From positions 52,222 through 116,221 of the forward strand of contig DATBGE010000146.1 in the NCBI GenBank assembly GCA_036558125.1: a stretch of 64,000 nt of DNA, read 5' to 3'. This document shows positions 4,453 through 50,686 of the stretch, piece by piece. Every line of letters begins with the position of its first letter. Position 1 is the stretch's first letter. The stretch comes from Gemmatimonadales bacterium (GTDB lineage: Bacteria > Gemmatimonadota > Gemmatimonadetes > Gemmatimonadales > GWC2-71-9). The notes beneath the pieces are model-generated. The model was not told the DNA's origin, made no database searches, and worked only from the letters and a program-made list of their open reading frames with translations. Made by a program: the position numbers and the translations under genes.

Positions 4453-5127
4453 ATGGCGTCACTCACCCGGCGGTTGACGGCAGAAGCCCTCGGCACCTTC
4501 AGTTTCGTATTCATCGGATGCGCCTCGGTCACCGCTGCTGGAATCATCGGTGGCGATGGCGGAGTCCTCGGCGTCGCCTTCGCCCACGCGCTCGCATTGT
4601 CGGTCATGATCACAGCCACGATGAACATCTCTGGTGGGCACCTGAATCCAGCCGTGACGCTCAGCCTGCTCAGCGTCCGCCGCATCGACGCGAAATCGGC
4701 TCTCCTTTATATAGTCGCGCAACTGGGCGGCGCCGCCCTGGGAGCTCTTTTCGTCAAGCTCCTGTACGGTCACAACTTCACCCATCCGATCACCCTGGGC
4801 ACTCCGAGCCTTGCCAATACCATGACGTGGGGCACCGCGATCGGAATCGAAGCCGTCCTGACCTTCTTTCTCGTATCGGCGGTCTTTGGCACCGCCGTGT
4901 CGCCCGACGCGCCCAAGGTAGGCGGGTTCGGCATCGGCATGGTCCTGCTGTTCGACATCATCGCCGGCGGCGCCTTGACCGGTGCAGTGATGAACCCGGC
5001 TCGCGCCTTTGGGCCCGCGCTCATCTCAGGGACCTGGTACGCCCAACCTGTCTGGTGGATTGGTCCGATACTCGGCGGGCTTGTCGCGGCGCAGATCTGG
5101 GACAGGGTGCTTTTGCGAAAGGAATAG
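4453..5127 (+). CDS. aqpZ: Aquaporin / MIP-family channel
   Basis: Two NPA boxes (HLNPAVTL and MNPARAFGP) and six hydrophobic segments. Confidence 0.9.
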   Translation: MASLTRRLTAEALGTFSFVFIGCASVTAAGIIGGDGGVLGVAFAHALALSVMITATMNISGGHLNPAVTLSLLSVRRIDAKSALLYIVAQLGGAALGALFVKLLYGHNFTHPITLGTPSLANTMTWGTAIGIEAVLTFFLVSAVFGTAVSPDAPKVGGFGIGMVLLFDIIAGGALTGAVMNPARAFGPALISGTWYAQPVWWIGPILGGLVAAQIWDRVLLRKE

Positions 5128-5144
5128 AAAGTCGTAAAGGTGAG

Positions 5145-5228
5145 AATTGAAGATTGCAGATTGAAGATTGCAGATTGAAAAGAACCTCTTCCCTCAAATC
5201 TGAAATCTGAAATCTCCAATCTTCAATT
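5145..5228. repeat. Heptamer-built imperfect inverted repeat (5 + 5 heptamers, 14-nt loop)
   Basis: Left arm AATTGAA GATTGCA GATTGAA GATTGCA GATTGAA at 5145-5179. Right arm TCAAATC TGAAATC TGAAATC TCCAATC TTCAATT at 5194-5228. The arms are approximately reverse-complementary, unit for unit. Confidence 0.9.
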
Positions 5229-5348
5229 TTCATCCCTGCCCACCCTACGGCACCTCCCCCACAACACCAACACGTACCCCAGATAGATCAGGCTCGCCAT
5301 GACATAGGCGGCGACCATGAACCCGCCGTTGCTCGGAGTCTCAGGCAT
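5223..5348 (-). CDS. ccmD: Putative heme exporter protein D (41 aa, single TM; absent from the ORF track because it is under 60 aa)
   Basis: My translation is MPETPSNGGFMVAAYVMASLIYLGYVLVLWGRCRRVGRDEN*. The ATG overlaps the ccmC stop (ATGCCTGA). It has one hydrophobic helix followed by basic residues, and occupies the expected position after ccmC. Confidence 0.5.
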   Translation of the reverse strand: MPETPSNGGFMVAAYVMASLIYLGYVLVLWGRCRRVGRDEN

Positions 5349-6713: not shown

Positions 6714-7422
6714 GTGCCAGCTCCTGGTACCGCGTCACAAACTGCTCGAGTGACGCGGCTCGGTTTTCTCGCAGCGCCCACTGACCAGCACGGAGGACGC
6801 CCACCCGAGTCGCCAGATCCCAGGCTTCAGACGGATGGTGGGTAACAAGCACGACCGCGCGACCGCCGAGACACCGCTCCCGCAGGAGCGTACGAAGCAG
6901 TTCCGCGGAGTTGGTGTCGAGTCCGGTGAAGGGTTCGTCGAGCAGCAGCACAGCTGGATCATGAATCAGCGCGCGGGCAATGGCCGCCCGCTGCTCCAGC
7001 CCGCGGCTCAGGTCTCGAGGCTGATCTCTGAGTCGCGCGGCGAGACCGAACGCTGCAAGCGCCTCGCGGGCCTTCTGCTCCGGCTGGGCCAAGCCATACA
7101 ACCGCGCGGCAAAAGTCAGGTTTTCGAGAAGTGTTAAGTCGTCGTAGAGCAGAGAGTGATGAGAGAGAAATCCGATCGGACGCCGGCTCTCGGGCTCACT
7201 CGCCCGAAGCAATTGGCCTGCGATCCGCACTTCACCCGCGCTCGGCCTGAGGAGACCGGCCAGCACGCGAAGCAACGTTGTCTTCCCCGCCCCGTTGGGA
7301 CCCAGCACCATCAGCACTTCGCCGGCGCCAAGAGTGAGGTCGACGCCGGAGATGGCCCGGACCGACCCGTAGGCCCGCTCCAGACCGACCGCCTCGAGCG
7401 CCGGCCGGTCAGCGGACGGCAT
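6706..7422 (-). CDS. ccmA: ABC transporter ATP-binding protein, heme export type
   Basis: Walker A GPNGAGKT, signature LSRGLEQR, Walker B LLLDEP. Operon context with ccmBC. Confidence 0.8.
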   Translation of the reverse strand: MPSADRPALEAVGLERAYGSVRAISGVDLTLGAGEVLMVLGPNGAGKTTLLRVLAGLLRPSAGEVRIAGQLLRASEPESRRPIGFLSHHSLLYDDLTLLENLTFAARLYGLAQPEQKAREALAAFGLAARLRDQPRDLSRGLEQRAAIARALIHDPAVLLLDEPFTGLDTNSAELLRTLLRERCLGGRAVVLVTHHPSEAWDLATRVGVLRAGQWALRENRAASLEQFVTRYQELARA

Positions 7423-7777
7423 CGATCCGGTCGCCGAGTTCTGACAGATCGAAGGGCTTTACCAGGTAGCCGCTGTGCGGGAGGTCCAGCACTTGGAGCT
7501 GGGGCTTGAGGCTGACGTAGGCGGAAGTGACAATGACGGGAAGGGCCGGCTGGATTTCCCGAAGACGGCGAATGAGGTCGATGCCGTCGGTGTCGGGAAG
7601 CCGCATATCGAGAACGGCAACGTCAGGCGGCTGCTCCTGCGCCAACCGAATCGCTTCGGCTCCGGTCGCCGCGAACGAGGCGGCATACCGGGCGGCAAAA
7701 TACCGCTCGTAGCTCAGGCGAATAGCCGGCTCGTCCTCGACAAAGAGAACCCGCCGGCGCGCGGGGGGGTGAGCCAT
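7409..7777 (-). CDS. Single-domain response regulator (receiver only)
   Basis: Receiver motifs FVEDEP, LDMRLPDTDG and VKPF. ATG 7777 is preferred over TTG 7786. Confidence 0.8.
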   Translation of the reverse strand: MAHPPARRRVLFVEDEPAIRLSYERYFAARYAASFAATGAEAIRLAQEQPPDVAVLDMRLPDTDGIDLIRRLREIQPALPVIVTSAYVSLKPQLQVLDLPHSGYLVKPFDLSELGDRIDAVR

Positions 7778-7794
7778 CCCCCCCAATATAGCCC

Positions 7795-8106
7795 TTAGAC
7801 CGCAGCCTCCAGCTGGAACAAGTCATCCAGTTTGGTGAGTACCAGCAGGAACCGAAGTTCGTCGTTCGCATTCCTGAGTACTACCACCTGGCGCCGCTCC
7901 GAGGCCCGGCGCTGCACCAGCATGAGCGCTCCCAGGCCCGCCGAATCCACCTGCCGGGTATGGCTCAGGTCGATGATCAGGCGACCGCTACGCTCGGGCA
8001 GCTGCTCGAGCAGGGTCACCGCCGCCTGGCGGAACTCGGTGCGTGACTCCAGACCGAGATGCTCGGGTGCCGCCAACTCCAGGGACGTCGTCTGCGTGGT
8101 GAACAT
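7795..8106 (-). CDS. STAS-domain protein (anti-sigma-factor antagonist family)
   Basis: About 100 aa with the pattern IDLSHTRQVDSAGLGALM typical of SpoIIAA/STAS. Confidence 0.8.
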   Translation of the reverse strand: MFTTQTTSLELAAPEHLGLESRTEFRQAAVTLLEQLPERSGRLIIDLSHTRQVDSAGLGALMLVQRRASERRQVVVLRNANDELRFLLVLTKLDDLFQLEAAV

Positions 8107-8292
8107 CGTGTCCTCCCACGCCCGAATACACAGAAGCGCGATCGTTCGCCGCCTGCTACTTCTGCGGGACGCTCGCGCTTTCGCGCTGCACCCGCCTTCG
8201 GCACCGAGCTATCTCTGCGCGCCAGACCTCGCGCTGGAGACCTCTAGTTTTGCGGCCCCGGATCACTCCGGGTGTGCTATTATCGGGCGAGT

Positions 8293-8531: not shown

Positions 8532-10487
<1,956 letters not shown>

Positions 10488-10490
10488 GTG

Positions 10491-10550
10491 GAATGGCGGA
10501 ATGGCGGGGGGAATGGCGGAATGGCGGAATGGCGGAATGGCGGAATGGCG
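10491..10550. repeat. Tandem octamer array GAATGGCG (6 perfect copies plus 1 degenerate, with one GGGG interruption)
   Basis: Units lie at 10491, 10499, 10511, 10519, 10527 and 10535, with a degenerate GAAGGCAA at 10543. The array starts 3 nt after the acs stop. Confidence 0.95.
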
Positions 10551-10603
10551 GAAGGCAACCCAAATTCGATTCAGAAATGTTAAGTCAAGGAGCTCGTGTG
10601 TCG

Positions 10604-11053
10604 ATGCGATTCACTCGTGTAGCGATTCTCCTGGCAGTCTCGGCCATCGCCGTTACCGCCTTTTCCGCCGCTCCCGACTCTCCCGCCTTACCGGAAATGA
10701 CGGTTTACAAGAGTCCGACATGCGGTTGTTGCTCAAAGTGGGTTGACCATGTAAAGGCGGCAGGCTTCAAAGTAAGGACGATCGACCAAAGCGATTTGTC
10801 TGAGTTGAAGGCCGACTTGGGAGTGACTAAAGCGCTCTCCTCGTGCCATACCGCGCTGGTCGGAGGATACGTGATCGAGGGTCACGTTCCCGCGTCGGAC
10901 ATCCAGCGGCTGCTCAAGGAGCATCCGAAAATCGTCGGCCTCGCGGCTCCGGGAATGCCGGGGGCGGGACCGGGTATGGACACCAGCAAGGACCCTTACG
11001 ATGTCCTGGCGTTTGACGCGGCTGGGAAAACCACCGTGTGGGCCCATCATTAG
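10604..11053 (+). CDS. DUF411-family periplasmic metal-binding protein
   Basis: Signal peptide MRFTRVAILLAVSAIAVTAFSA, CGCC motif, and HTALVGGYVIEGHVP. AAGGAG at 10587-10592 is a likely SD. GTG 10598 is an alternative start. Confidence 0.75.
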   Translation: MRFTRVAILLAVSAIAVTAFSAAPDSPALPEMTVYKSPTCGCCSKWVDHVKAAGFKVRTIDQSDLSELKADLGVTKALSSCHTALVGGYVIEGHVPASDIQRLLKEHPKIVGLAAPGMPGAGPGMDTSKDPYDVLAFDAAGKTTVWAHH

Positions 11054-11102
11054 TCGCTGGTCGCTGAACAATTGCCAATTGAAAATTGCAAATTGACAAT
11101 TG
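11054..11102. repeat. Seven in-phase heptamers directly after a stop codon
   Basis: TCGCTGG TCGCTGA ACAATTG CCAATTG AAAATTG CAAATTG ACAATTG. The CAATTG core is self-complementary, so the array can fold back on itself. Confidence 0.9.
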
Positions 11103-11123
11103 AAAAACGGCCCTAGCTGACAG

Positions 11124-13049
11124 CTAGAACTGTATCTGCGCCCCCATCTCCACTACCCGATTAGGCGGCAGCCCGAAGAATGCCGTAGCGGTCTGGGCAT
11201 TCCGGCTCATCAAGACGAAAAGACGTTTGCGCCACATCGCCATCCGCTTCCGCGGTGGGGCGCCTTCTTCCGTCGTGGCGGCACGTGGCGCCACGGGGAT
11301 CAATGATTCCCGCCCCAGGTAAAACGTTGTTTCCAGTGGACGAACCGTCACTCCGCGCGACTGGATCAGCCGCAGCGCCGCGGGCACGTCCGGCGATTCC
11401 ATGAAGCCATAGTGGGCTCGCAGCGCGTAGAACTTCTGGCCTAGATCGGTGAACTCGAGCCGCTCCTCCTCCGGGACTTGGGGAATCTCCTCGGTCGTGA
11501 CCGAGAGCAGGATGACCTGCTGATGCAGGACCTTGTTGTGCTTGACGTGGTGCAGCAGCACCGGGGGAGCGCCGCCCGCGTTCGAGGTCATGAACACCGC
11601 GGTGCCTGGGACCCTGGTGGGAATGCGTTTCGCAACGTCTCCCAGAAAGAGATCCATGGGGAGCGAAATCTCCTCCATGATCTCGTTCAGGCGCCGGCGG
11701 CCCTGCTTCCAGGTGCTCATCAGCGTGTAGACGATCGCGGCGAGGACCAGCGGGAACCAACCGCCCTGCTCCACTTTAATCAGGTTCGCCGAGAGAAACG
11801 CGAGGTCAACGACCAGGAATAGCGTGGTCAGTGCTCCGCTCTGCAACCGGCTCCAACCCCACCGCTCCCGCGTGACTTTGTAGAAAAGCAGGGTCGTGAT
11901 CGTCATCGTCCCGGTCACCGCGATGCCGTAGGCCGAGGCGAGGTGGGACGAGGTCTTGAAGTTCGCGACCAGCGCGATGCAGGCCACCATCAGCCACCAG
12001 TTCACCTCCGGGATGTAGATCTGGCCCCGTTCGGTGTAAGAGGTGTGCTTGATGGTCACTCTCGGACAGTACCCCAGTTGAACTGCCTGTTGGGTAAGCG
12101 AAAACGCGCCGGAGATGAGGGCCTGGCTCGCGACAATCGCCGCGGTGGTTGCCACGACCACCATCGGATAGAGAACGGCCCGCGGCACCAGGCCGAAGAA
12201 CGGGTTGCTAGCGGCTTCCGGCTGGGTCAGCAGCAGCGCACCCTGTCCGAAGTAGTTGATCATGAGCGCCGGCAGGACGAGGCCGAACCAGGCAACGCGA
12301 ATCGGGCGCTTGCCGAAGTGCCCCATATCGGCATAGAGCGCTTCGCCACCGGTCACGACCAGGACGACCGCGCCGAGGATAAGGAATCCCTGAACCCCGT
12401 CGCGCAGGAAAAAGTCCACCGCGAACCACGGATTCATCGCCTTGAGCACCGAGGGATATCGGGCGATTCCTCCCAGGCCAAGCAGCGTGATCGAAATGAA
12501 CCACACGATCATGACGGGGCCGAAGACCCGTCCCACCCGCGTGGAGCCGTGGCCCTGGAACAGGAACAGCAGCACCAGGATCACGATCGCGATGACCCAG
12601 ACCACGTGATCCAGCGACGAAGTGGCAACCTTGAGTCCCTCCACCGCGCCCAGCACCGAGATGGCGGGTGTGATCACTCCATCGCCATACAACAAGGCGG
12701 CGCCGAACAGACCGATGGTGACGAGCACCCACCGACTGTGGCCTTCTCGCCGCGGGCGAATCAGCGCCAGAAGCGCCAGGATCCCCCCCTCGCCGCGGTT
12801 GTCGGCCTTCATGACGCAGAGGATGTACTTGAAGGAGATGATGAAATTGAGAGACCAGAAGATCAGCGAGAGGACGCCGAGGACATTGGCACTGGTCAGG
12901 GGAATGCTATGAGCCCCGGTGAAGCACTCCTTGATGGCGTATAGCGGGCTGGTGCCGATGTCGCCGTAGACGACTCCAAGCGCGGCGAGGGACAGCGCCG
13001 CGAGCCGTCCGCGGGCCGGCGTGCCGCCTGGCCCGGCGCCGTCGGTCAC
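11124..13049 (-). CDS. kup: KUP/HAK/KT potassium uptake transporter
   Basis: GDIGTSPLY motif, about 12 TM segments and a cytoplasmic C-terminal domain. GTG 13049 overlaps the upstream stop (GTGA). The track start at 13142 lies inside the VKOR gene. Confidence 0.9.
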   Translation of the reverse strand: MTDGAGPGGTPARGRLAALSLAALGVVYGDIGTSPLYAIKECFTGAHSIPLTSANVLGVLSLIFWSLNFIISFKYILCVMKADNRGEGGILALLALIRPRREGHSRWVLVTIGLFGAALLYGDGVITPAISVLGAVEGLKVATSSLDHVVWVIAIVILVLLFLFQGHGSTRVGRVFGPVMIVWFISITLLGLGGIARYPSVLKAMNPWFAVDFFLRDGVQGFLILGAVVLVVTGGEALYADMGHFGKRPIRVAWFGLVLPALMINYFGQGALLLTQPEAASNPFFGLVPRAVLYPMVVVATTAAIVASQALISGAFSLTQQAVQLGYCPRVTIKHTSYTERGQIYIPEVNWWLMVACIALVANFKTSSHLASAYGIAVTGTMTITTLLFYKVTRERWGWSRLQSGALTTLFLVVDLAFLSANLIKVEQGGWFPLVLAAIVYTLMSTWKQGRRRLNEIMEEISLPMDLFLGDVAKRIPTRVPGTAVFMTSNAGGAPPVLLHHVKHNKVLHQQVILLSVTTEEIPQVPEEERLEFTDLGQKFYALRAHYGFMESPDVPAALRLIQSRGVTVRPLETTFYLGRESLIPVAPRAATTEEGAPPRKRMAMWRKRLFVLMSRNAQTATAFFGLPPNRVVEMGAQIQF

Positions 13050-14842: not shown

Positions 14843-14866
14843 GAAACCACGAGCTATCAGTTTGGT

Positions 14867-14898
14867 GAGCCGCCCGCCCAGGGCGGCTCGATTGTTTT
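14867..14898. terminator. Intrinsic terminator between convergent genes
   Basis: GAGCCGCCC-gccca-GGGCGGCTC stem followed by GATTGTTTT. Confidence 0.8.
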
Positions 14899-24682: not shown

Positions 24683-26269
24683 ATGGCGACGTTTGCACTG
24701 CCTGCCCGGCAGGTCCGCCTCTCACGGGAAGCGGTTTACAGCGCCCGCTACCTCATTGCCTTCGCGGTAGTGTCGGCAAGCGTTCTCGAGCTGGTGGACA
24801 CCAGCATCGTGAACGTGGCGATTCCCCACATGATGGGGAACCTGGGTGCGACACTGGACGAGATCGCCTGGGTCAGCACAGGCTATATCGTAGCCAACGT
24901 CATCATCCTGCCGTTGACCAGCTGGCTGTCGGACCGCTTCGGCCGCCGGAACTACTACACCGGCTCGATCATCCTTTTTACGATCGCGTCCTTCCTCGCC
25001 GGCAATGCCCACACGCTGGAGGAGTTGATCGCCGCCCGGGTGATCCAGGGCATCGGTGGTGGCGCGCTCATCTCCACGGCCCAGGCCATTCTGTTCGACG
25101 TCTTTCCGTTGCGGGAACGCGGGAAGGCAATGGCCATCTTCGGCATGGGCGTGATGGTGGGGCCAACGCTGGGACCCACCCTGGGCGGTTGGATCACCGA
25201 CAACTATTCCTGGCCCTGGATCTTCTACATCAACATCCCGCTCGGCATCCTGGCGGCGATGATGACCTGGCGGTACGTGCCCGAGCCCGAGCACCCGAAC
25301 GAGCGGGTGGACCACGTGGACTGGCTCGGTCTGGCGCTGCTGATCGTCGGCATCGGGTGCCTCCAGGTCCTGCTCGAACGGGGAGAGTCCAAGGGATGGT
25401 TCGAGTCAAATGAGATCCGGACCGAGACTCTGCTTGCCACGGTCGCTCTGATCGGGTTCGTGTGGCACGAGCTGACCACCGAACATCCGGTCGTAGACCT
25501 GCGCATCCTGCGCAACCGCCAGCTCGCGGCCGGCGTCGTGTTCGGACTGATTCTTGGCTTCGCCCTGTACGCCAGCGTCTTCGCCTTGCCGGTGTTTCTG
25601 CAGACGCTGCGGGGATACACCGCGTGGGATACCGGGAAAGTGATCCTGCCGGGCGCCATTGCCAGTGCGATCACGATGGCTGTCACCGGGCGAATTACCG
25701 GCAAGGTGGATGCGCGCTATCTGATCGTCACGGGAGTGGGACTCTTCTTCTGGGCGATGTGGCTGCATTACCACTTCACACTCGAGATCGGGATGCACGA
25801 TCTCTTGCTGCCGATGATCCTCCGTGGCGTGGGCCTCGGTCTCATCTTCGTCCCGCTCACCCAGGTCGCCGTCGCCGACCTCCGTCCCCAGCAGCTTGCT
25901 CAGGGGACGGGCCTCTTCAACCTCTCTCGTCAGTTGGGCGGCAGCTTTGGGATCGCCGTGGCGGCGACGTTGCTGACCCGATTCACCGAGCAGAGTCGCG
26001 AGGGTCTGCGCGCGCACCTGACACCGACAGAGCCATCGACCGCTGCCTGGCTGCAGGCGACCGTGGCCCGGATGCAGCACCTGGGTGGCAGCTTCCAGGA
26101 AGCCCAGGCGAGAGCGTATCGCCTGCTCAATCTCCACCTCGACGCCCAGGCCGGCATGATCGCGTTCGAGAAGGTCTTCCTGATCATGGGAATCACCTTC
26201 GTCATCGCGTTGCCGCTTCTGCTGCTGTTCCGGACGGGAAGGACGCAGGGAGGGCCGGTCGGACACTAG
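24683..26269 (+). CDS. MFS transporter, DHA2 (EmrB/QacA, 14-TMS) family
   Basis: 528 aa, about 14 TM segments, motif SDRFGRRN. Confidence 0.9.
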   Translation: MATFALPARQVRLSREAVYSARYLIAFAVVSASVLELVDTSIVNVAIPHMMGNLGATLDEIAWVSTGYIVANVIILPLTSWLSDRFGRRNYYTGSIILFTIASFLAGNAHTLEELIAARVIQGIGGGALISTAQAILFDVFPLRERGKAMAIFGMGVMVGPTLGPTLGGWITDNYSWPWIFYINIPLGILAAMMTWRYVPEPEHPNERVDHVDWLGLALLIVGIGCLQVLLERGESKGWFESNEIRTETLLATVALIGFVWHELTTEHPVVDLRILRNRQLAAGVVFGLILGFALYASVFALPVFLQTLRGYTAWDTGKVILPGAIASAITMAVTGRITGKVDARYLIVTGVGLFFWAMWLHYHFTLEIGMHDLLLPMILRGVGLGLIFVPLTQVAVADLRPQQLAQGTGLFNLSRQLGGSFGIAVAATLLTRFTEQSREGLRAHLTPTEPSTAAWLQATVARMQHLGGSFQEAQARAYRLLNLHLDAQAGMIAFEKVFLIMGITFVIALPLLLLFRTGRTQGGPVGH

Positions 26270-26272
26270 ACA

Positions 26273-26410
26273 GCGGGAACGAGGAACATTTGTAGCGGCT
26301 GGCACACTGAAGAACGAATAGGAACCAGGAATCGGCCAGCTTAATTTTAGCTTCTGTTCTCTGTTCTCTGTTCTCTGTTCTCTGTTCCCTGTTCCCTGTT
26401 CCCGCTTCTC
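26273..26410. repeat. Heptamer array (4x TGTTCTC, 3x TGTTCCC, plus degenerate GCTTCTC) with a complementary purine-rich arm
   Basis: Units run from 26355 to 26403, and to 26410 with the degenerate unit. GCGGGAACGAGGAACA at 26273-26288 matches the reverse complement of TGTTCCCTGTTCCCGC at 26390-26405 in 14 of 16 positions. An inner GCTGGC...GCCAGC stem is present. Confidence 0.9.
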
Positions 26411-26414
26411 GCCT

Positions 26415-27854
26415 TTGTCCAACATCCTCGACGATTTCGAATCCGACGCGACACCAGCAGCCGGATCCTTGTTGCTGCAGTTGGTCGGCCGATACCTGGA
26501 GGACACCCGCCGCGGCGAGGGGCCGGTCTCGACCGGACTCACGCCGGCTGAGCTGGCCCAGCAGTTCGCGGGTCCCATGCCTCGTCGCGGGCGCCCGCTT
26601 GATGAGGTAGTGGCGCACCTCGAGCGCGATGTTCTTCCCCACTGCAATCGCCTCACCCATCCGATGTATCTCGGCCATCAGGTGTCGGCCCCGCTCCCCG
26701 CAGCAATCTGGACCGAATCCCTGACCGCAGCGATCAACAATTCGCTCGCCGTGGCGGAGATGTCACCGGCCATCACGGCAATCGAGCGCCAGCTGATTCG
26801 CTGGATGGCCGACCTGGCCGGGTATGGAGCGGAAGCGGGAGGGACGTTCACGTCGGGGGGCACCGAGGCAACGTTCACGGCCCTCCTCGCCGCCCGGGCA
26901 AGGGCTCTGCCGGACGCGTGGGAGAATGGCATCGGAAGCGCTGCACCCGCCGTGGTCTACGGCGAGAATGCTCACTACGCCGTCACCCGGGCGATCGGTG
27001 AGCTAGGGATTGGACTCAAGGCGGGCGTCGTGGTCCCCAACCGCGACCACCGGATGGATCCGGCGGCGTTGAACACGGTGCTGGATGAGCTGGCGAGGAG
27101 GGGTCGCCAGATCATGGCGGTGGTGGCCACCGCCGGCTCGACTCCCACAGGATCGTTCGATGACCTGGAAACAATCGGGCGTGCCTGTGAAGCCCGTGGA
27201 ATCTGGCTCCACGTCGACGGTGCGCATGGCGCCTCGGCGTTGCTCTCCAGCCGGGACCGCTACCGCGTGAAAGGCATCGAGCGGGCCCGCTCCATCGCGT
27301 GGGATCCCCACAAGATGATGCTGCTGCCGCTCTCCGCGGGAATGCTGGTGGTCCGAGACGAGAGTGACGTCGATCAGGCGTTTCTGCAACGCGCTCCCTA
27401 CCTGTTCCACGGCGCTGAGGACCAACCCGTACCCGATCAGGGCGTCCGGAGCTTCGCCTGCTCCCGGCGGGCCGATGCCCTTAAGGCCTGGGTCGCCCTG
27501 CAGCGCTACGGAGCCGACGGGATTGGAGAGCTGTACGATCGTCTCTGTGACTTGACTACCGAGCTGCACAGCCTCATCGAGCGGCACTCCTCATTCGAAG
27601 CTTTGCACGCTCCCGAAAGCAATATCCTGTGCTTCCGGTTCGTAGGAGATGGGAGTCTCGACGACGCAGCTCTCGACCGGCTCAACAAGGAGTTGCGCGA
27701 GCGGTTCAATCGGTCTGGGGCGGGATGGATCACGACAACCGTCCTCAACGCGCGCCGTGTGCTTCGGGTGACGATCATGAATCCCCGGACCGGAGCCGCG
27801 CACCTCCAGCGCCTGCTTGATGGCCTCGCAGCCGAAGCGGGGCGAATGGGCTGA
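26415..27854 (+). CDS. Group II pyridoxal-phosphate-dependent decarboxylase
   Basis: HVDGAHGAS and the PLP-Lys context SIAWDPHKMMLLP. TTG start 26415; no in-frame ATG lies near the N-terminus. Confidence 0.85.
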   Translation: MSNILDDFESDATPAAGSLLLQLVGRYLEDTRRGEGPVSTGLTPAELAQQFAGPMPRRGRPLDEVVAHLERDVLPHCNRLTHPMYLGHQVSAPLPAAIWTESLTAAINNSLAVAEMSPAITAIERQLIRWMADLAGYGAEAGGTFTSGGTEATFTALLAARARALPDAWENGIGSAAPAVVYGENAHYAVTRAIGELGIGLKAGVVVPNRDHRMDPAALNTVLDELARRGRQIMAVVATAGSTPTGSFDDLETIGRACEARGIWLHVDGAHGASALLSSRDRYRVKGIERARSIAWDPHKMMLLPLSAGMLVVRDESDVDQAFLQRAPYLFHGAEDQPVPDQGVRSFACSRRADALKAWVALQRYGADGIGELYDRLCDLTTELHSLIERHSSFEALHAPESNILCFRFVGDGSLDDAALDRLNKELRERFNRSGAGWITTTVLNARRVLRVTIMNPRTGAAHLQRLLDGLAAEAGRMG

Positions 27855-30956: not shown

Positions 30957-31031
30957 ATGTCTTGGACCAAGCCAGAAGCTGAAGTGGTTGCGGTCACCAT
31001 GGAAGTCACCGCGTACGTCGCGACGCTTTAA
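30957..31031 (+). CDS. pqqA: Coenzyme PQQ precursor peptide (24 aa; absent from the ORF track)
   Basis: My translation is MSWTKPEAEVVAVTMEVTAYVATL*. It carries the conserved E-x3-Y (EVTAY). GGAGGG lies 7 nt upstream of the ATG. The ORF sits directly upstream of pqqB. Confidence 0.85.
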   Translation: MSWTKPEAEVVAVTMEVTAYVATL

Positions 31032-31082
31032 ACTCGCGATGCACCGGACGGGGCTCGCGGAAGCGGGCCCCGTTTGTTTTGT

Positions 31083-31991
31083 ATGGACCTCATTCTCCTA
31101 GGCACCGCCGCCGGCGGCGGGTTCCCTCAGTGGAACTGCTGGTGCCCACCTTGCCGCGTTGCGCGAACCGATCCGGCTCGGGCCCACCCCCGCACTCAAT
31201 CCTCCGCCGCAGTCTCGGCGGACGGCAAGCGATGGTTTCTGCTTAACGCTTCACCGGACGTGCGGCTCCAGCTGGGGCTGTTGAACGGGCAGGCTCCCGC
31301 CGGTATTCGTCACGTGCCGGTCGAAGGTGTGATCGTCACTGACGCGGAGTTGGATCATACGCTTGGCCTGGCATTGCTCCGCGAGGCTCGACAGCTCAGC
31401 CTCTACGCCACCGATGCGGTCCTTGGCGTCGTTCGTGAGGATTCGCGATTGCTGCCGGTGACCGAGGCCTTCTCGGAGGTCACTGTCACGAGGTTGTCTC
31501 TGGATCACGAGGTTCCTTTGCTCTACCGGGACGGGACACCCAGCGGCCTCGAGGTGACTGCCTTCAGCGTAGCAGGAGATCCGCCCCGGTTCGCGCGGCG
31601 CGAGGAGGCGGGCCACACCATCGGACTCTCGTTGCGGGACTCCAGGTCCGGGAACAAGGCTGCATTCATTCCTGGCTGTGGCGCGCTCGATGAGAAGCTG
31701 CTCGCTCGTCTGCGCAGGACGGATTCGCTCTTCATCGACGGTACTTTCTGGGATGACGCAGAGCTTCTCACACTCGGGATCAGCGATCGTTCGGCCCGGC
31801 AGATGGGGCATGTACCGGTCTCGGGAAAAGAGGGAAGTCTGGCTCGGCTTCGGGATCTCCCTTGCCGAAATCGGGTCTACACCCATATCAACAATTCGAA
31901 TCCCATGCTGCTGGAGGACTCGCCCGAGCGGCGCGAAGTTGAGGCCGCCGGCGTTCTGGTGGGAGACGACGGGATGAGATTTTCACTATGA
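31083..31991 (+). CDS. pqqB: PQQ biosynthesis protein B (metallo-beta-lactamase fold)
   Basis: N-terminus MDLILLGTAAGGGFPQWNCWC. ATG 31083 is preferred over TTG 31074. Confidence 0.9.
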   Translation: MDLILLGTAAGGGFPQWNCWCPPCRVARTDPARAHPRTQSSAAVSADGKRWFLLNASPDVRLQLGLLNGQAPAGIRHVPVEGVIVTDAELDHTLGLALLREARQLSLYATDAVLGVVREDSRLLPVTEAFSEVTVTRLSLDHEVPLLYRDGTPSGLEVTAFSVAGDPPRFARREEAGHTIGLSLRDSRSGNKAAFIPGCGALDEKLLARLRRTDSLFIDGTFWDDAELLTLGISDRSARQMGHVPVSGKEGSLARLRDLPCRNRVYTHINNSNPMLLEDSPERREVEAAGVLVGDDGMRFSL

Positions 31992-40876: not shown

Positions 40877-40910
40877 AGTAAGGAGTGAGGAGTCAGTCCC
40901 TACTCCGCTC
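40877..40910. repeat. Copy of the AGTAAGGAGTGAGGAGT 17-mer (heptamers TAAGGAG and TGAGGAG) with a short facing CT-rich segment
   Basis: Positions 40877-40893 are identical to 49095-49111. The copy begins 4 nt after the cysK stop. The opposing segment overlaps the last codons of the convergent P5C dehydrogenase gene. Confidence 0.85.
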
Positions 40911-45402: not shown

Positions 45403-45782
45403 TTCCCGATCATGACCTCGGTGGACTTGATGACTGCGAAAACCTCGTCGCCCACTTTCAATCCCATCCGTTCGACCGAGTTCCTCGTGATGATCGAGAC
45501 CAACTCCTGATCGCCGATCCGAAGGCGTATCTCCGCCATGACACCGTCGACGTGCAGGGAGGCGATGCGACCGCGAAGCCGGTTTCGGGCGCTAAGGTCC
45601 TGGACTGGTGCTGGAGCGCTTTCACCTGGGCTTCCGAGGAGCGCTTCGATCTTCGCACGGGAGAAGAGCCATTTGCGGCCCACACGACTCGCTGGGAGTT
45701 TGCCGTCGCGAGCCAATGTCTGAACTCGCTTCTTGTTGAGCCGAAGCAGAGCGGCGACCTCTTCCACGCCTAGTGTATCCAT
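45399..45782 (-). CDS. HTH (excisionase/MerR-type) plus TOBE/Mop-domain regulator, probably molybdate-responsive
   Basis: N-terminal HTH LGVEEVAALLRLNKKRVQTLARDGKLPASRVGRKWLF. C-terminal Mop/TOBE domain ARNRLRGRIASL...AVIKSTEVMI. Confidence 0.8.
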   Translation of the reverse strand: MDTLGVEEVAALLRLNKKRVQTLARDGKLPASRVGRKWLFSRAKIEALLGSPGESAPAPVQDLSARNRLRGRIASLHVDGVMAEIRLRIGDQELVSIITRNSVERMGLKVGDEVFAVIKSTEVMIGK

Positions 45783-45796
45783 ATTGGCCGTTTGTT

Positions 45797-45828
45797 GGCT
45801 ATTATAGCCCCTTAAAGGGTCCTAGCAA
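45797..45828 (-). promoter_or_regulatory. Sigma-70-type promoter of the mod operon, with a palindromic operator over the -10 box
   Basis: The minus strand reads TTGCTA (45828-45823), a 16-nt spacer, then TATAAT (45806-45801). A perfect 13-bp palindrome GGCTAT-A-ATAGCC spans 45797-45809. The start codon lies about 12 nt beyond the expected transcription start and has no SD. Confidence 0.55.
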
Positions 45829-45984
45829 GCGCGCCTAGGCCTCCTGGGTCAATCCTCCCCACTTATGGCCGAAGGATGCGATCGATTGGCGTCCACCTTT
45901 GAAACGTAGCCGGCTAACGCCTTTGACCCCATGGTAGTCCCAGAAATGTGGCCTCCGCACCGCAATGAGGTCGTGATGAGGCCC

Positions 45985-46227
45985 GCAAGGGGGGCTGGAC
46001 AGGGGGTGGGGGGGGTGAGCTAGACTGGGCTTGCGGCCCCTGTCCAGCAGGGGGCGTGTTTGCATCCTCCGACCGAGCGGAGGGTCCACTCCTCACAGCT
46101 GACTCTCTCCTTGAGCTGTGGGGCCCCCAGTAGCGGGGGGGGCGAGGCCAATCTTCCCTGACAGGCTTCTCGGGCTGTCACGGGGGGGCCAGACCGAGTC
46201 CCGCACCAACAATGAAAAGAGGAGTTT
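45985..46227 (+). other. G-tract-rich multi-hairpin region of unknown function (possible structured leader or ncRNA)
   Basis: G6 at 45989-94, G5 at 46002-06, G8 at 46008-15, G5 at 46050-54, G8 at 46135-42 and G7 at 46182-88. Hairpins: CTGGACAGGGG/CCCCTGTCCAG (45995-46005 with 46037-46047), CCTCCG/CGGAGG (46066-46083), CACAGCT/AGCTGTG (46094-46120) and TGACAG/CTGTCA (46159-46180). Confidence 0.5.
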
Positions 46228-47460
46228 GTGAACGTCCTGGTGTTGGGAGCCGGCGCGGTGGGGACCGTGTCCGCCCTGAAATTCGCGCAGCATCCCATGG
46301 TGACCAGGCTGGTCATCGCGGATGCTGTCCCTGGTCGAGCCCAGCTGCTCGCCGACCGCATTGGAAGCCCGCGCGTGAGCGCCATGACGCTCGACGCCGG
46401 AAACCGTAGTGATCTCGCCCGAGCCATTCGCGAAACCGGTACGACCATCCTGCTGAACGCTGCCCTTCCGGCCACCAACCTGGTCGTGATGCGGGCGTGT
46501 CTTGATGGCGGATGCGACTACATCGACATGGCCAGCGGCGGAGCCGCCATGGATGGCACCCCGAAACTTCCCGACCAGTTCGCCCTCGACCACGAGTTCA
46601 AGGCCGCGGGACGTCTGGCAATCCTGGGAATGGGGGCTGATCCGGGAACCAGTAACGTCTACGCCGCGTACGCCGCCAAGCACCTGCTCGATACGGTGAC
46701 TGAGCTGCGGGTACGGGACGGCGACAATTCTGTCTGCCAGGGCCACGATGGATTCCTGGCCGCCTTTAGTCCGTGGGTCTTCATCGACGAGTGCCTCTGC
46801 GGCGCCATCTCCTGGCGCGATGGGACCTATCACCTCGAGGAGCCGCTCTCCGGTTTCGAGCCCTTCAACTTCCCGGAGCTCGGGGTTCTCAATACCTACT
46901 ACGTCGACCACGAAGAGGCCCGCACCCTGCCGATGTTCTTTCCCGGCCTGACGGTGGCGGACTTCAAGCTGTGCATGGACGATGTGACCTGGCAGACCCT
47001 GCGGGTCTTGAAGCAGATGGGACTCTCCCGGACCGACAAGGTGCGGGTGGGAGACACCGCGGTTTCACCGCGCGATGTCGTCGTCGCCCTGTTGCCTCAG
47101 CCTGGCGATCTCGCCGGAAGGATGCGGGGAAAGACCTGCGTTGGCACGATGGCGCGCGGAATTCGCAACGGGCAGGAACGCAGCTTCTACATCTATAATG
47201 TGACCGACCACGAGAAGGTCCATGCCGAACTTGGAGTTCAGGCCACGGCCTACCAGACCGGAGTTCCTCCGGTCATCGCGGCCGAGTTGATGGCTAATGG
47301 TCGTTGGAGCGGAGTCGGCGTCATGTCTCCCGAGCAGTTCGATCCCGATCCCTTCCTGGCCCGCCTCGGCGCCATGGGAATGCCCTGGCACGTCCGGGAT
47401 GAGGACACGGGGAAGGTCGATGCGGTTGAGGTGGATTTCGCCGAACCGGTAGCGGCGTAA
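46228..47460 (+). CDS. Saccharopine dehydrogenase-family NAD(P)-binding protein
   Basis: GTG start preceded by GAGGAG. Rossmann motif VLVLGAGAVGT. About 410 aa, typical of the family. Confidence 0.8.
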   Translation: MNVLVLGAGAVGTVSALKFAQHPMVTRLVIADAVPGRAQLLADRIGSPRVSAMTLDAGNRSDLARAIRETGTTILLNAALPATNLVVMRACLDGGCDYIDMASGGAAMDGTPKLPDQFALDHEFKAAGRLAILGMGADPGTSNVYAAYAAKHLLDTVTELRVRDGDNSVCQGHDGFLAAFSPWVFIDECLCGAISWRDGTYHLEEPLSGFEPFNFPELGVLNTYYVDHEEARTLPMFFPGLTVADFKLCMDDVTWQTLRVLKQMGLSRTDKVRVGDTAVSPRDVVVALLPQPGDLAGRMRGKTCVGTMARGIRNGQERSFYIYNVTDHEKVHAELGVQATAYQTGVPPVIAAELMANGRWSGVGVMSPEQFDPDPFLARLGAMGMPWHVRDEDTGKVDAVEVDFAEPVAA

Positions 47461-47506: not shown

Positions 47507-47540
47507 ACACGAAGCCCTCCGCGACGGCGGAGGGCTTCGT
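47507..47540. terminator. Bidirectional intrinsic terminator
   Basis: 15-bp stem CACGAAGCCCTCCGC-gacg-GCGGAGGGCTTCGTG followed by TTT. Lies between convergent stops. Confidence 0.85.
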
Positions 47541-48790: not shown

Positions 48791-49113
48791 CGGCGCTACT
48801 TCAAGTCACTACCACGGTTCCTTCGAAGGAGCTGGCGCGTCGCATCGCAGATACGGTCGTCGCTGAGCGGCTTGCGGCATGCGCTCAAATATTCGGTCCC
48901 ATTACGAGCGTATATCGCTGGCAGGGAGCGATAGAGGAAGCCTCCGAGTGGTATTGCCTGCTCAAGACCAGCGCGGTCGCTTATCCCGGTCTCGAAGCTC
49001 GCATTCGTTCGCTCCACCCGTACGAAGTACCGGAAATCGTCGCAACCCCGATAGTAGCGGCCGCCGAACGCTACGCGGCGTGGATCGCCGAGGAAGTAAG
49101 GAGTGAGGAGTAA
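48787..49113 (+). CDS. cutA: Divalent-cation tolerance protein CutA (not in the ORF track; no canonical start)
   Basis: My translation is LTALLQVTTTVPSKELARRIADTVVAERLAACAQIFGPITSVYRWQGAIEEASEWYCLLKTSAVAYPGLEARIRSLHPYEVPEIVATPIVAAAERYAAWIAEEVRSEE*, which fits the CutA pattern (ERLAAC...Y.W.G...E..L..KT...HPYE.PEI). The frame opens after TAG 48775-77. The only plausible start is CTG 48787, overlapping the upstream TGA (CTGA). Confidence 0.7.
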   Translation: MTALLQVTTTVPSKELARRIADTVVAERLAACAQIFGPITSVYRWQGAIEEASEWYCLLKTSAVAYPGLEARIRSLHPYEVPEIVATPIVAAAERYAAWIAEEVRSEE

Positions 49114-49210
49114 GGTGTAAGCAGCTGGACACAAGAAACGTCCCCTGCTTACCTCTCACACCTCACTCCTCGCTCCTCACTCCTTACTCCCTTTACGCCT
49201 CACGCTTCAC
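49095..49210. repeat. Heptamer-built imperfect hairpin (TAAGGAG/TGAGGAG arm against a CTCCTNA arm)
   Basis: The left arm TAAGGAG TGAGGAG TAAGGTG TAAGCAG spans 49097-49124. The loop is 20 nt. The right arm CTGCTTA CCTCTCA CACCTCA CTCCTCG CTCCTCA CTCCTTA CTCCCTT starts at 49145. The left arm encodes the last cutA codons and the stop. Confidence 0.9.
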
Positions 49211-49226
49211 TCCATCCGGGGATCCC

Positions 49227-50618: not shown

Positions 50619-50651
50619 GAGTGTCGGGGGAAAGTACTGCGACTGAGGCCG

Positions 50652-50686
50652 TCATCACGTTTCACGCCTTACGTCTCACGTCCCCA
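50652..50686. repeat. Heptamer array TCATCAC GTTTCAC GCCTTAC GTCTCAC GTCCCCA
   Basis: Five in-phase 7-mers ending in CAC or TAC, located between the mgtE stop and the cheB stop. The last units overlap the cheB 3' end. Confidence 0.75.

Follow-up and report, generated by a model that had tools for sequence, protein, structure and literature searches.

The 64,000-nucleotide (nt) stretch of a Gemmatimonadales genome analysed here (assembly GCA_036558125.1, contig DATBGE010000146.1, positions 52,222 to 116,221; hereafter the window) carries, between the aquaporin gene aqpZ and a set of cytochrome c maturation (ccm) genes, a long hairpin made of two facing arrays of seven-nucleotide repeats (5141-5232). 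We use it as the type element of a family of tandem heptamer arrays which, as shown by their distribution over 1.52 Mb of sequence from this lineage, are preferentially retained at the 3' ends of genes. The explanation that we favour, with a confidence slightly above even, is that these arrays are heptanucleotide long simple sequence repeats (LSSRs) comparable to the short tandemly repeated repetitive (STRR) sequences of cyanobacteria, which would be born by slippage, kept at 3' ends and, where they form hairpins, used as transcript-end structures.

By direct reading, the left arm of the type element (5145-5179) consists of the heptamers AATTGAA, GATTGCA, GATTGAA, GATTGCA and GATTGAA, i.e. (ATTGAAG/ATTGCAG)x5, and is followed by a 14-nt loop (5180-5193) and a right arm of five further heptamers (5194-5228), the reverse complements of which match the left-arm units one for one, exactly as described in the original prediction, which had been made from the sequence alone. 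Tandem Repeats Finder (TRF) reported a period of 7 with 4.9 copies and a super-period of 14 with 2.4 copies and a 100% match, and an inverted-repeat search placed the arms at 5141-5176 and 5197-5232 (36 nt, 86% complementary, 20 nt between them). The predicted RNA fold has an energy of -39.3 kcal/mol on the plus strand (z -7.5) and -40.0 kcal/mol on the minus strand (z -6.4), and none of 200 dinucleotide shuffles was equally stable. With a G+C content of 0.33, compared with 0.635 for the window, the element is strongly AT-rich in GC-rich DNA, and it does lie between two convergent stop codons, both as predicted. The aqpZ gene on the plus strand (4453-5127), an open reading frame (ORF) for a MIP-family aquaporin (PF00230) with 98% identity to proteins from Gemmatimonadales metagenome-assembled genomes (MAGs), has its stop codon at 5125-5127, 14-18 nt upstream of the left arm. 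On the minus strand, a 41-amino acid ORF (5223-5348), located 3' of ccmC, ccmB and ccmA and gene-called in contigs of the Joint Genome Institute (JGI), has its final codons GAA AAT TGA within the right arm. This ORF has no match to CcmD or to any other family in Pfam, so that only its position and size speak for the ccmD label. The ATTGNAG unit is confined to this locus in the window, bar a weak match at 11078.

Four independent JGI metagenome assemblies which encode an identical AqpZ contain the same 5141-5232 element with one single-nucleotide polymorphism in the loop, and two further assemblies carry the elements found at 49095 and 50650 in the window unchanged. As the type element is reproduced in independent assemblies, it is not an assembly artefact, one of the options left open in the original prediction. 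Two of these JGI contigs (L110 and L111) stop at the same base within the right arm, corresponding to window position 5210; contig ends inside the hairpin appear to be the typical break of an assembler at an inverted repeat, and heptamer inverted repeats appear to break short-read assemblies.

The comparative set comprised the window and 108 Gemmatimonadales loci (1.52 Mb), these being related loci rather than the parent genome, and the AqpZ and MgtE proteins of the window share 94-98% identity with proteins from MAGs of uncultured Gemmatimonadales. For gene calling we used a simple codon model, trained on long ORFs (89% coding), in which start codons are especially uncertain, and arrays were counted if they had at least three copies. 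Outside genes, period 7 was by far the commonest with 118 arrays, followed by period 8 with 34, and there were 5, 5, 6 and 5 arrays of periods 5, 6, 9 and 10, respectively; within genes periods 6 and 9 predominate (46 and 33 arrays), with 5, 23, 17 and 2 arrays of periods 5, 7, 8 and 10. Arrays were present in 103 spacers, with a mean density of about 0.6 in every 10 kb (the window has 0.9), which translates into a few hundred arrays per genome, and as only 34 of the 64 loci of at least 10 kb contained any array, density differs among genomes. The median number of copies was 4.6 and the maximum 16.6, and the mean array G+C content was 0.59 compared with 0.68 for the loci, which makes the AT-rich type element atypical.

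The placement of the arrays depends strongly on the type of spacer, as they were found in 41 of the 154 convergent spacers (27%), in 52 of the 702 co-directional spacers and in only 10 of the 173 divergent spacers (6%). The difference between convergent and divergent spacers is significant both for occupancy (Fisher p 2e-7) and for array density (1.84 vs 0.30 per kb, p 4e-11). In convergent spacers 78% of the elements have their start no more than 10 nt from a stop codon, and 55 array edges overlap the facing stop codon or lie at most 5 nt from it. Of 72 arrays next to a stop codon, 57 are rich in purines on the neighbouring gene's sense strand (p 6.5e-7; G 0.43, C 0.18), and in the two-armed elements of co-directional spacers the purine-richer arm came first in 12 cases and second in 6, which is a trend only. 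Units also recur within genomes, with at least 6 of 7 positions in common in 27.9% of the within-genome spacer pairs vs 8.2% of the between-genome pairs (p 2e-6), and the arms within one spacer match each other far more often than do arrays from different spacers of the same genome.

We also compared the predicted folding of spacers with and without arrays. Of the array-bearing spacers 46% had a z-score below -3, a proportion which was 83% for the 24 inverted pairs detected by TRF and 30% for apparently single arrays, 24/64 of which had a nearby complementary 14-mer (at least 12 of 14 nt matched). Convergent spacers with arrays (median z -3.8; 66% below -2.5) resemble those free of arrays (median z -3.0; 59% below -2.5), and divergent spacers are essentially unstructured (median z 0.0; 2% below -2.5). 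Hairpins with a GC-rich stem and a T-tract were scarce, as our own scan detected only 27 in about 770 spacers. The heptamer arrays thus share the niche of the ordinary hairpins in convergent spacers of genomes poor in U-tract terminators, a niche in which a hairpin is commonplace and a U-tract uncommon, which is our chief reason for proposing that they have a role at the 3' ends of transcripts.

In the explanation that we favour, segments of 7 nt, or less often 8 nt, would be duplicated in tandem or slip in place, and the duplicated segment would often take in the gene's own last codons and stop. The resulting arrays grow, shrink and swap their unit sequence fast between species, and they persist mostly in spacers that face gene 3' ends and are scarce in promoter-bearing divergent spacers. 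Two complementary arrays facing each other would give a long hairpin, in which pairing could tolerate shifts in register, and such a hairpin would take the part that ordinary hairpins play in most other convergent spacers, as a bidirectional terminator without U-tract and/or as a barrier to 3'-exonucleases; the 5141-5232 hairpin would serve aqpZ and the ccmABCD operon alike. Single arrays, e.g. that at 10490-10553, would probably be raw material or a by-product of the same process. To regard the hairpins as terminators that lack a U-tract, or as stabilisers of 3' ends, would be the most economical functional reading, and it is plausible that heptamer arrays represent, as had been proposed, a distinct second class of 3'-end structure. 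If the hairpins do act as terminators, then predictors and annotation pipelines would miss a large fraction of transcript ends in the Gemmatimonadota, and probably also in the Chloroflexota and Acidobacteriota.

Several observations count against this explanation, in which the terminator or stabiliser role is a prediction. No U-tract comes after the heptamer stems. The sense strand of co-directional spacers folded more stably than the antisense strand in 11 cases and less stably in 12, and a G-U signature specific to RNA is thus lacking. Some half of the spacers with arrays show no significant structure (54% with z above -3), and 64 of the 103 elements are single arrays, hence a hairpin role cannot account for the whole family. 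Elements in co-directional spacers were nearer to the stop codon than to the next start in 30 vs 22 cases, which is not significant (p 0.33), and the 3'-end association therefore rests chiefly on spacer type, with the gene calls of the comparative set coming from a crude codon model. No strain-level copy-number polymorphism was found at three arrays among contigs encoding an identical protein. Finally, slippage alone accounts neither for the period of 7 nor for the recurrence of units within genomes (28% vs 8%).

A serious rival, which we consider possible but rather unlikely, is that the arrays are neutral debris of a polymerase-specific bias towards 7-nt slippage which survives where it is harmless, in 3' spacers and at the extreme 3' ends of ORFs, with no function and with hairpins arising incidentally, e.g. 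when two sense-oriented arrays of a genome-preferred unit meet in a convergent spacer. The fast turnover of unit, copy number and loop is as expected for such debris, as are the half of the elements that are unstructured single arrays, the lack of a folding advantage on the sense strand and the heptamer bias seen across many phyla (also reported by Mrazek 2007, as cited in PMC4679880), and experiments in Xanthomonas found no function for comparable repeats (PMC4692102). It is less easily reconciled with the 11 inverted pairs in co-directional spacers, including those at 26272-26412 and 49078-49205, where the second arm lies away from any stop codon, or with the arms of one spacer matching far above the level of arrays from different spacers in the same genome. 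The aqpZ-ccmD hairpin has moreover been kept in all five species in which we compared it, despite the turnover of its sequence, and array-bearing convergent spacers are as structured as array-free ones. A more speculative proposal, which we consider distinctly unlikely, is that a transcription-coupled process starting where ribosome cover of the nascent RNA ends makes the arrays, for instance through R-loop instability past the stop codon, and that the hairpins are the main, continually regenerated bidirectional terminators of the Gemmatimonadota, Chloroflexota and Acidobacteriota, phyla in which U-tract terminators are largely missing. In that case the instability would arise on the G-rich non-template strand just past the stop, and the step size would come from the 7-8-nt footprint of an enzyme.

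The origin of individual arrays can be followed at several gene ends, and the Gemmatimonadales provide clear cases of arrays born from the stop-codon region of the gene itself. In L088 (2221-2286), mgtE ends with ...GGG ACG TTG CTG TGA and is followed by (GCTGTGA)x9.4, in L086 (1793-1821) the mgtE end ...CTT TAG CGC is followed by (TTAGCGC)n, in L006 (4488-4534) the aqpZ end ...AAG AAG TGA lies in (AGAAGTG)n, and in L014 (4676-4785) the TAG stop of ...CAG TAG opens an octamer array (GCGATTGG)x13.5. A 7-nt duplication that includes the stop codon keeps the protein intact, and this explains why arrays abut stop codons, why units contain them and, in part, why purines are in excess. Across genomes at least eight different units come after the orthologous mgtE stop codon, which indicates repeated independent births. 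There is good support for an origin of the arrays by slippage of 7 nt in place. Because the arrays overlap the ends of ORFs, C-terminal tails vary: for CutA, encoded upstream of mgtE, the window has the ending ...EEVRSEE, L031 has ...VGNHVRSEE and both L029 and L030 have ...SELQSDR, and AqpZ ends in ...RKSEK in L009. In L009 and L016 the aqpZ reading frame enters the array, with 2-4 C-terminal residues added or changed. Next to such altered tails in CutA and AqpZ, broken assemblies and spurious ORF extensions are the practical effects of the arrays.

The frequent presence of stop codons in the units would also be expected if arrays were fail-safe stop modules, in which a period that is not a multiple of three places stops in all three frames after the ORF and so catches read-through and frameshifted ribosomes. 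On the sense strand a stop is included in the unit of 29/72 stop-adjacent arrays, compared with 7/72 on the antisense strand, all three frames are stopped in 28 arrays vs 3, and permuting the letters of the units gives 21.2 +/- 2.8 (P 0.0035). Seeding from a duplicated stop codon explains this excess equally well, stop-containing units make up only 40% of the arrays, and neither the second, pyrimidine-rich arm nor the preference for 7 over 4, 5 or 10 is explained, and we give this proposal very little weight. The births from ORF ends also bear on the possibility that the element is mobile, similar to a MITE (a miniature inverted-repeat transposable element) or to a REPIN, a hairpin formed by repetitive extragenic palindromic (REP) sequences, or is after all an artefact of assembly. 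Its palindromic design, the intergenic sites, a 17-mer common to two loci of the window and the two contigs that break within the hairpin could all be read in that way. There are however no shared flanks, terminal inverted repeats or target duplications, each locus tends to have a unit of its own, in some cases copied from the end of the local ORF, and identical sequence was recovered in 4 + 2 independent assemblies, with elements also at the orthologous sites of other species, which makes a mobile or artefactual origin extremely improbable. The decayed MITE which the original prediction had listed as an option was specifically rejected, as arrays with the same unit have unrelated flanks and some units derive from the local ORF end, and repeated births from ORF ends rule out a MITE-like insertion. 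An assignment to REP or REPIN sequences was rejected too, as there is no conserved 20-40-nt palindrome in many copies and units differ between loci; no gene for a REP-associated tyrosine transposase (RAYT, Y1 transposase) was noticed among the inspected ORFs of the window, for which no dedicated search was made.

Turnover of the arrays is most easily seen at orthologous sites. Hairpins of the ATTGAAG/ATTGCAG/ATTTCAG type between aqpZ and ccmD were found in four relatives with 95-98% identical AqpZ, in which the order and number of units differ (with three per arm in L004) and the loop sequence is unrelated, and all of these are predicted to fold strongly (z -5.6 to -8.9). In distant relatives with 57-67% AqpZ identity, the same site contains AGTGAGA/AGAAGTG arrays, often as inverted pairs, or octamer arrays. 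Similarly, the hairpin in the cutA-mgtE spacer is kept in relatives with varying units, the mgtE flanks among relatives with 94-96% identity have differing units in 3-17 copies, and the number of copies in the mgtE-cheB spacer ranges from 4.6 in the window up to 16.6 in L029. The variation in unit number anticipated in the original prediction was thus found between relatives. The L029 spacer downstream of mgtE (2490-2750) contains, side by side, GGACTGA, eight copies of AGTAYCG, GTCGCC-type units and 16.6 copies of CCCGTCT/CCCATCT, and this 270-nt patchwork looks like the product of successive array births and expansions. The order of units in one arm is mirrored in the other in L002, L004 and the Oscillochloris element L131 described below, but only partially so in L001, L003 and the window, and we considered a concerted evolution of the arms without proposing it.

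The lack of conservation of the loops argues against a loop-specific ligand, and is also relevant to the idea that the arrays are binding sites, either as G-quadruplexes (G4) on the G-rich sense strand or for a genome-specific DNA- or RNA-binding protein which reads the 7-nt period and regulates the neighbouring genes. The higher recurrence of units within than between genomes (27.9% vs 8.2%, p 2e-6) and the G-rich sense strand (G 0.43, C 0.18) are in line with this idea, many units have a tract of three or four G residues every 7-8 nt (e.g. CGGGGAA, GAACGGGG and AAGGGGA), and GGGAATC repeats form G4 in vitro (PMC4692102). We nevertheless regard such a binding role as very unlikely, as the type unit ATTGAAG and many others have no G-tract, units vary both among the loci of one genome and among orthologous loci, the loops are unconserved, and there is no functional theme among the neighbouring genes; the fail-safe stop modules discussed above rank just below it in probability.

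Among known systems, the REP sequences, bacterial interspersed mosaic elements (BIMEs) and REPINs of Proteobacteria are extragenic palindromes which act as mRNA 3' stabilisers or terminators, the role that we propose for the heptamer hairpins. The heptamer elements resemble them in their palindromic design outside genes and in their position at 3' ends, frequently in convergent spacers, and differ in having no conserved sequence and being internally tandem-repetitive, where REPs are conserved 20-40-nt units present in hundreds of copies and mobilised by RAYTs. Terminators without a U-tract, termed I-shaped, have been proposed for GC-rich Actinobacteria. Like these and the intrinsic terminators, the heptamer hairpins are stable, are located just past a stop codon and could work in both directions between convergent genes, but the stem of the type element is AT-rich, far longer (approximately 35 bp), interrupted and without U-tract. 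A canonical intrinsic terminator was accordingly rejected as an identity for the type element, with its stem of 33% G+C and about 35 bp with internal loops, and a consensus scan flagged a hairpin at 14866-14890 and not the type element.

The cyanobacterial STRR1-3 sequences have the units CCCCAGT, TTGGTCA and CAACAGT. The analogy with the STRR heptanucleotides, described by Mazel et al. in 1990 (cited in PMC4692102), had been drawn in the original prediction and is apt, as both are tandem, intergenic, high-copy heptamers with several unit families per genome. The phylum, the high G+C content of the genome and the units (ATTGAAG, AGTRAGG and others, which are unrelated to STRR1-3) are different, and with STRR being a name for taxon-specific sequences, the Gemmatimonadales arrays are not members of it. 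Nostoc PCC 7120 has GGGGA(C/T)T heptamer repeats (PMC4692102), and the closest described counterpart comes from two GC-rich Xanthomonas genomes, each with approximately 185 arrays of the heptamer GGGAATC (Rehm et al. 2015, PMC4692102). The original prediction was not aware of such a description for a GC-rich genome outside the cyanobacteria; heptamer repeats at 3' ends are however already known from cyanobacteria and Xanthomonas, and the Gemmatimonadales are a further, multi-unit and GC-rich case. In Xanthomonas 89-93% of the arrays are intergenic, with average distances of 28 nt to the ORF upstream and 160 nt to the following one, there are 70-75 inverted pairs with stem-loop potential, arrays are under-represented between divergent genes, and the two species fill the same spacers at different lengths (PMC4692102). 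The Xanthomonas arrays are transcribed and no function was found, and both there and in Nostoc it is on the coding strand that the repeats downstream of ORFs are G-rich (PMC4692102).

The Gemmatimonadales arrays share with these repeats the period of 7, the intergenic position beside an upstream stop codon, the scarcity between divergent genes, the frequent inverted pairs, the G-rich sense strand and the variation in length at corresponding spacers of related species, and with Xanthomonas also the presence of hundreds of arrays per genome in a GC-rich, non-cyanobacterial host. In contrast to Xanthomonas, with essentially one G4-prone unit, the units are many, including ATTGAAG, AGTRAGG, GGAACAG, GACGTGA and GGAATGGC, and there is a minority class with period 8 as well as units copied from ORF ends. 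The type unit lacks the tract of three or four G residues of the Xanthomonas unit, and GGGGAAC-type units occur in some relatives. As the units of one genome are many and unrelated, G4 cannot be what the arrays have in common, and the Gemmatimonadales, as a GC-rich phylum with many units per genome, thus allow the period and architecture to be separated from any single motif such as G4. The TAACTGA repeats of marine Beggiatoaceae are likewise intergenic, orientation-specific and present in hundreds per genome (MacGregor 2015, PMC4679880), but are located directly upstream of start codons in forward orientation, with a single unit and almost never as inverted pairs (PMC4679880).

According to the summaries in PMC4679880 and PMC4692102, in the survey by Mrazek, Guo and Shah (2007) heptamers outnumbered every other class of LSSR in most prokaryotic genomes, and the authors proposed slippage as their origin and 7 nt as the length of the DNA segment held by the polymerase. 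The arrays described here agree with the LSSRs so summarised in that period 7 is the commonest and that periods which are not a multiple of three are kept out of coding sequence, and they have the runs of 5-11-nt units beyond chance, the excess of period 7 and the between-species change in unit number that characterise LSSRs. In those summaries, hairpin architecture, abutment to stop codons and Gemmatimonadota are not singled out. We found no prior description of such repeats in the Gemmatimonadota (Gemmatimonadetes, Gemmatimonas) in a literature search of limited coverage.

We expanded the search beyond the Gemmatimonadales using three exact copies of ATTGNAG in one genome per species, which gave at least 120 loci. 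The matches listed include Chloroflexota (with several loci in Oscillochloris sp. ZM17-4), Acidobacteriota, Cyanobacteria, Verrucomicrobiota, Bacteroidota, Desulfobacterota, Gemmataceae and one Gemmatimonadaceae MAG, and many of those listed are plus/minus pairs approximately 40 nt apart. When the ATTGNAG arrays themselves were left out, the sequences listed still contained 156 arrays of period 7, vs 26, 39 and 20 of periods 6, 8 and 9, in a sample which, being chosen for one such array, shows breadth and not frequency. In Oscillochloris (L131, 4688-4758) there is a perfect (ATTGCAG)n/(CTGCAAT)n hairpin with a z-score of -12.1, the variant unit ATTGTAG of which has an exact mirror image in the other arm. 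Near-identical (ATTGCAG)n/(CTGCAAT)n hairpins are present in L190 (4547-4625) and in L165, an Acidobacteriota MAG (2640-2783).

Six further loci in the window had been predicted to share much of the design of the type element, and this was borne out: they have a period of 7 or 8, and a genuine stop codon is found at 0-31 nt from each of the seven loci, with the stop inside the array for the ccmD-like ORF, cutA and cheB. The reservations are that hairpins are present at only 3-4 of the seven loci and that one locus (40877) has just 2.4 units. The view that this is a family by design and not by sequence, characterised by period 7 or 8, stop adjacency and often two complementary arms, remains appropriate. 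Shuffled windows gave 0.4 period-7/8 arrays compared with the 12 TRF rows at six loci observed, and only the type element and the array at 11065-11106 are AT-rich. One of the six is the plus-strand hairpin in the cutA-mgtE spacer (49078-49205), detected by TRF, inverted-repeat search and folding, in which a purine arm (AGTAAGG/AGTGAGG, 49095-49121) faces a pyrimidine arm (CTCACTC and similar, 49145-49205), and the stretch 49085-49215 folds with z -8.1 on the plus and -5.7 on the minus strand. The hairpin between the genes for a major facilitator superfamily (MFS) transporter and a pyridoxal phosphate (PLP) decarboxylase (26272-26412, plus strand; TRF, inverted-repeat search, folding and Pfam) also has the predicted pair of purine and pyrimidine arms, with a short purine arm GGGAACGAGGAACA at 26272-26288, 2 nt after the MFS transporter stop codon (TAG, 26267-26269), and a long pyrimidine array (TCTGTTC)x7 at 26353-26401 and beyond (z -3.2 on the plus and -2.0 on the minus strand for 26268-26415). 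The self-complementary array noted before is a CAATTG-type heptamer array without assigned strand (11065-11106, period 7, 5.1 copies; TRF, inverted-repeat search and folding), which forms a weak hairpin (z -1.8 on the plus and -2.7 on the minus strand) between the DUF411 gene (stop 11051-11053) and kup (stop at 11124), next to a small GC hairpin with T-tract for kup.

The remaining three loci are unstructured. The octamer array (GGAATGGC)x8.5 at 10490-10553, detected by TRF on the plus strand, is a single array and not a hairpin (z +1.2, plus strand only), and starts 2 nt after the acs stop codon (TAG, 10485-10487). The longest ORF for DUF411 (10493-11053, plus strand) begins within this array and would have a spurious MAEWRGEWRNGGMAEWRNGG... 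N-terminus, the true start likely being the ATG at 10604. At 40877-40893 (plus strand, by direct reading), the 27-nt spacer between the convergent genes for a PALP-domain protein and an aldehyde dehydrogenase contains 2.4 units (AGTAAGGAGTGAGGAGT), which is under the TRF threshold and gives no significant fold (z -0.75, plus strand only), and this 17-mer is an exact copy of 49095-49111, with 0.02 matches expected by chance. The TRF-detected array at 50650-50686 (minus strand, period 7, 4.6 copies) has GACGTGA-type units on the cheB sense strand, covers the final cheB codons and the TGA stop (50678-50676), starts 31 nt after the mgtE stop codon, and has no hairpin (z about 0).

The cutA stop codon (TAA, 49111-49113) is located within the purine arm, and the last seven codons and the stop of cutA, giving the C-terminus ...EEVRSEE, are encoded by the heptamer array. 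The CutA1 gene (48799-49113, plus strand) is full length, matching profile positions 3-99 of 99 of PF03091 (E 4e-36), but the lack of an in-frame ATG, GTG or TTG start kept it out of the ORF listing; it is likewise uncalled in the JGI annotation of identical contigs, and probably uses a non-canonical start codon, ATC or CTG, near 48799.

Ordinary GC-stem hairpins also occur in the window, as had been predicted, at 14866-14890 (with T-tract, by consensus scan) and 47507-47540 (by direct reading), with an additional one at 31045-31076; the consensus terminator scan of the window gave no more matches than in shuffles. The 31045-31076 hairpin, with 14 bp, a GC-rich stem and a T-tract, is among the few canonical terminators of the window and follows a 24-amino acid ORF for a PqqA precursor peptide (30957-31031, plus strand; PF08042, 22.2 bits compared with a cut-off of 21.1). 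Downstream of this ORF, a gene with a metallo-beta-lactamase fold (PF12706, Lactamase_B_2) starts at 31260 and is PqqB-like by position. The 454-nt spacer at 45774-46227, upstream of the gene at 46228, contains several runs of seven or eight G residues, e.g. ggggtggggggggtgagc, agcggggggggcgagg and cacgggggggccag.

Finally, we also searched the window with Rfam 15, in which E-value mode gave only sub-threshold matches to generic hairpin (miRNA precursor) models, and at the gathering threshold there was no M-box upstream of mgtE and a single match, to a c-di-GMP-I riboswitch aptamer on the minus strand (8197-8288; RF01051, 51.5 bits compared with a gathering score of 35). The minus-strand genes downstream of this riboswitch are a response regulator (7409-7786), a STAS-domain gene (7795-8106), ccmA, ccmB, ccmC and the ccmD-like ORF, and the riboswitch may thus link c-di-GMP to the cytochrome c maturation operon.

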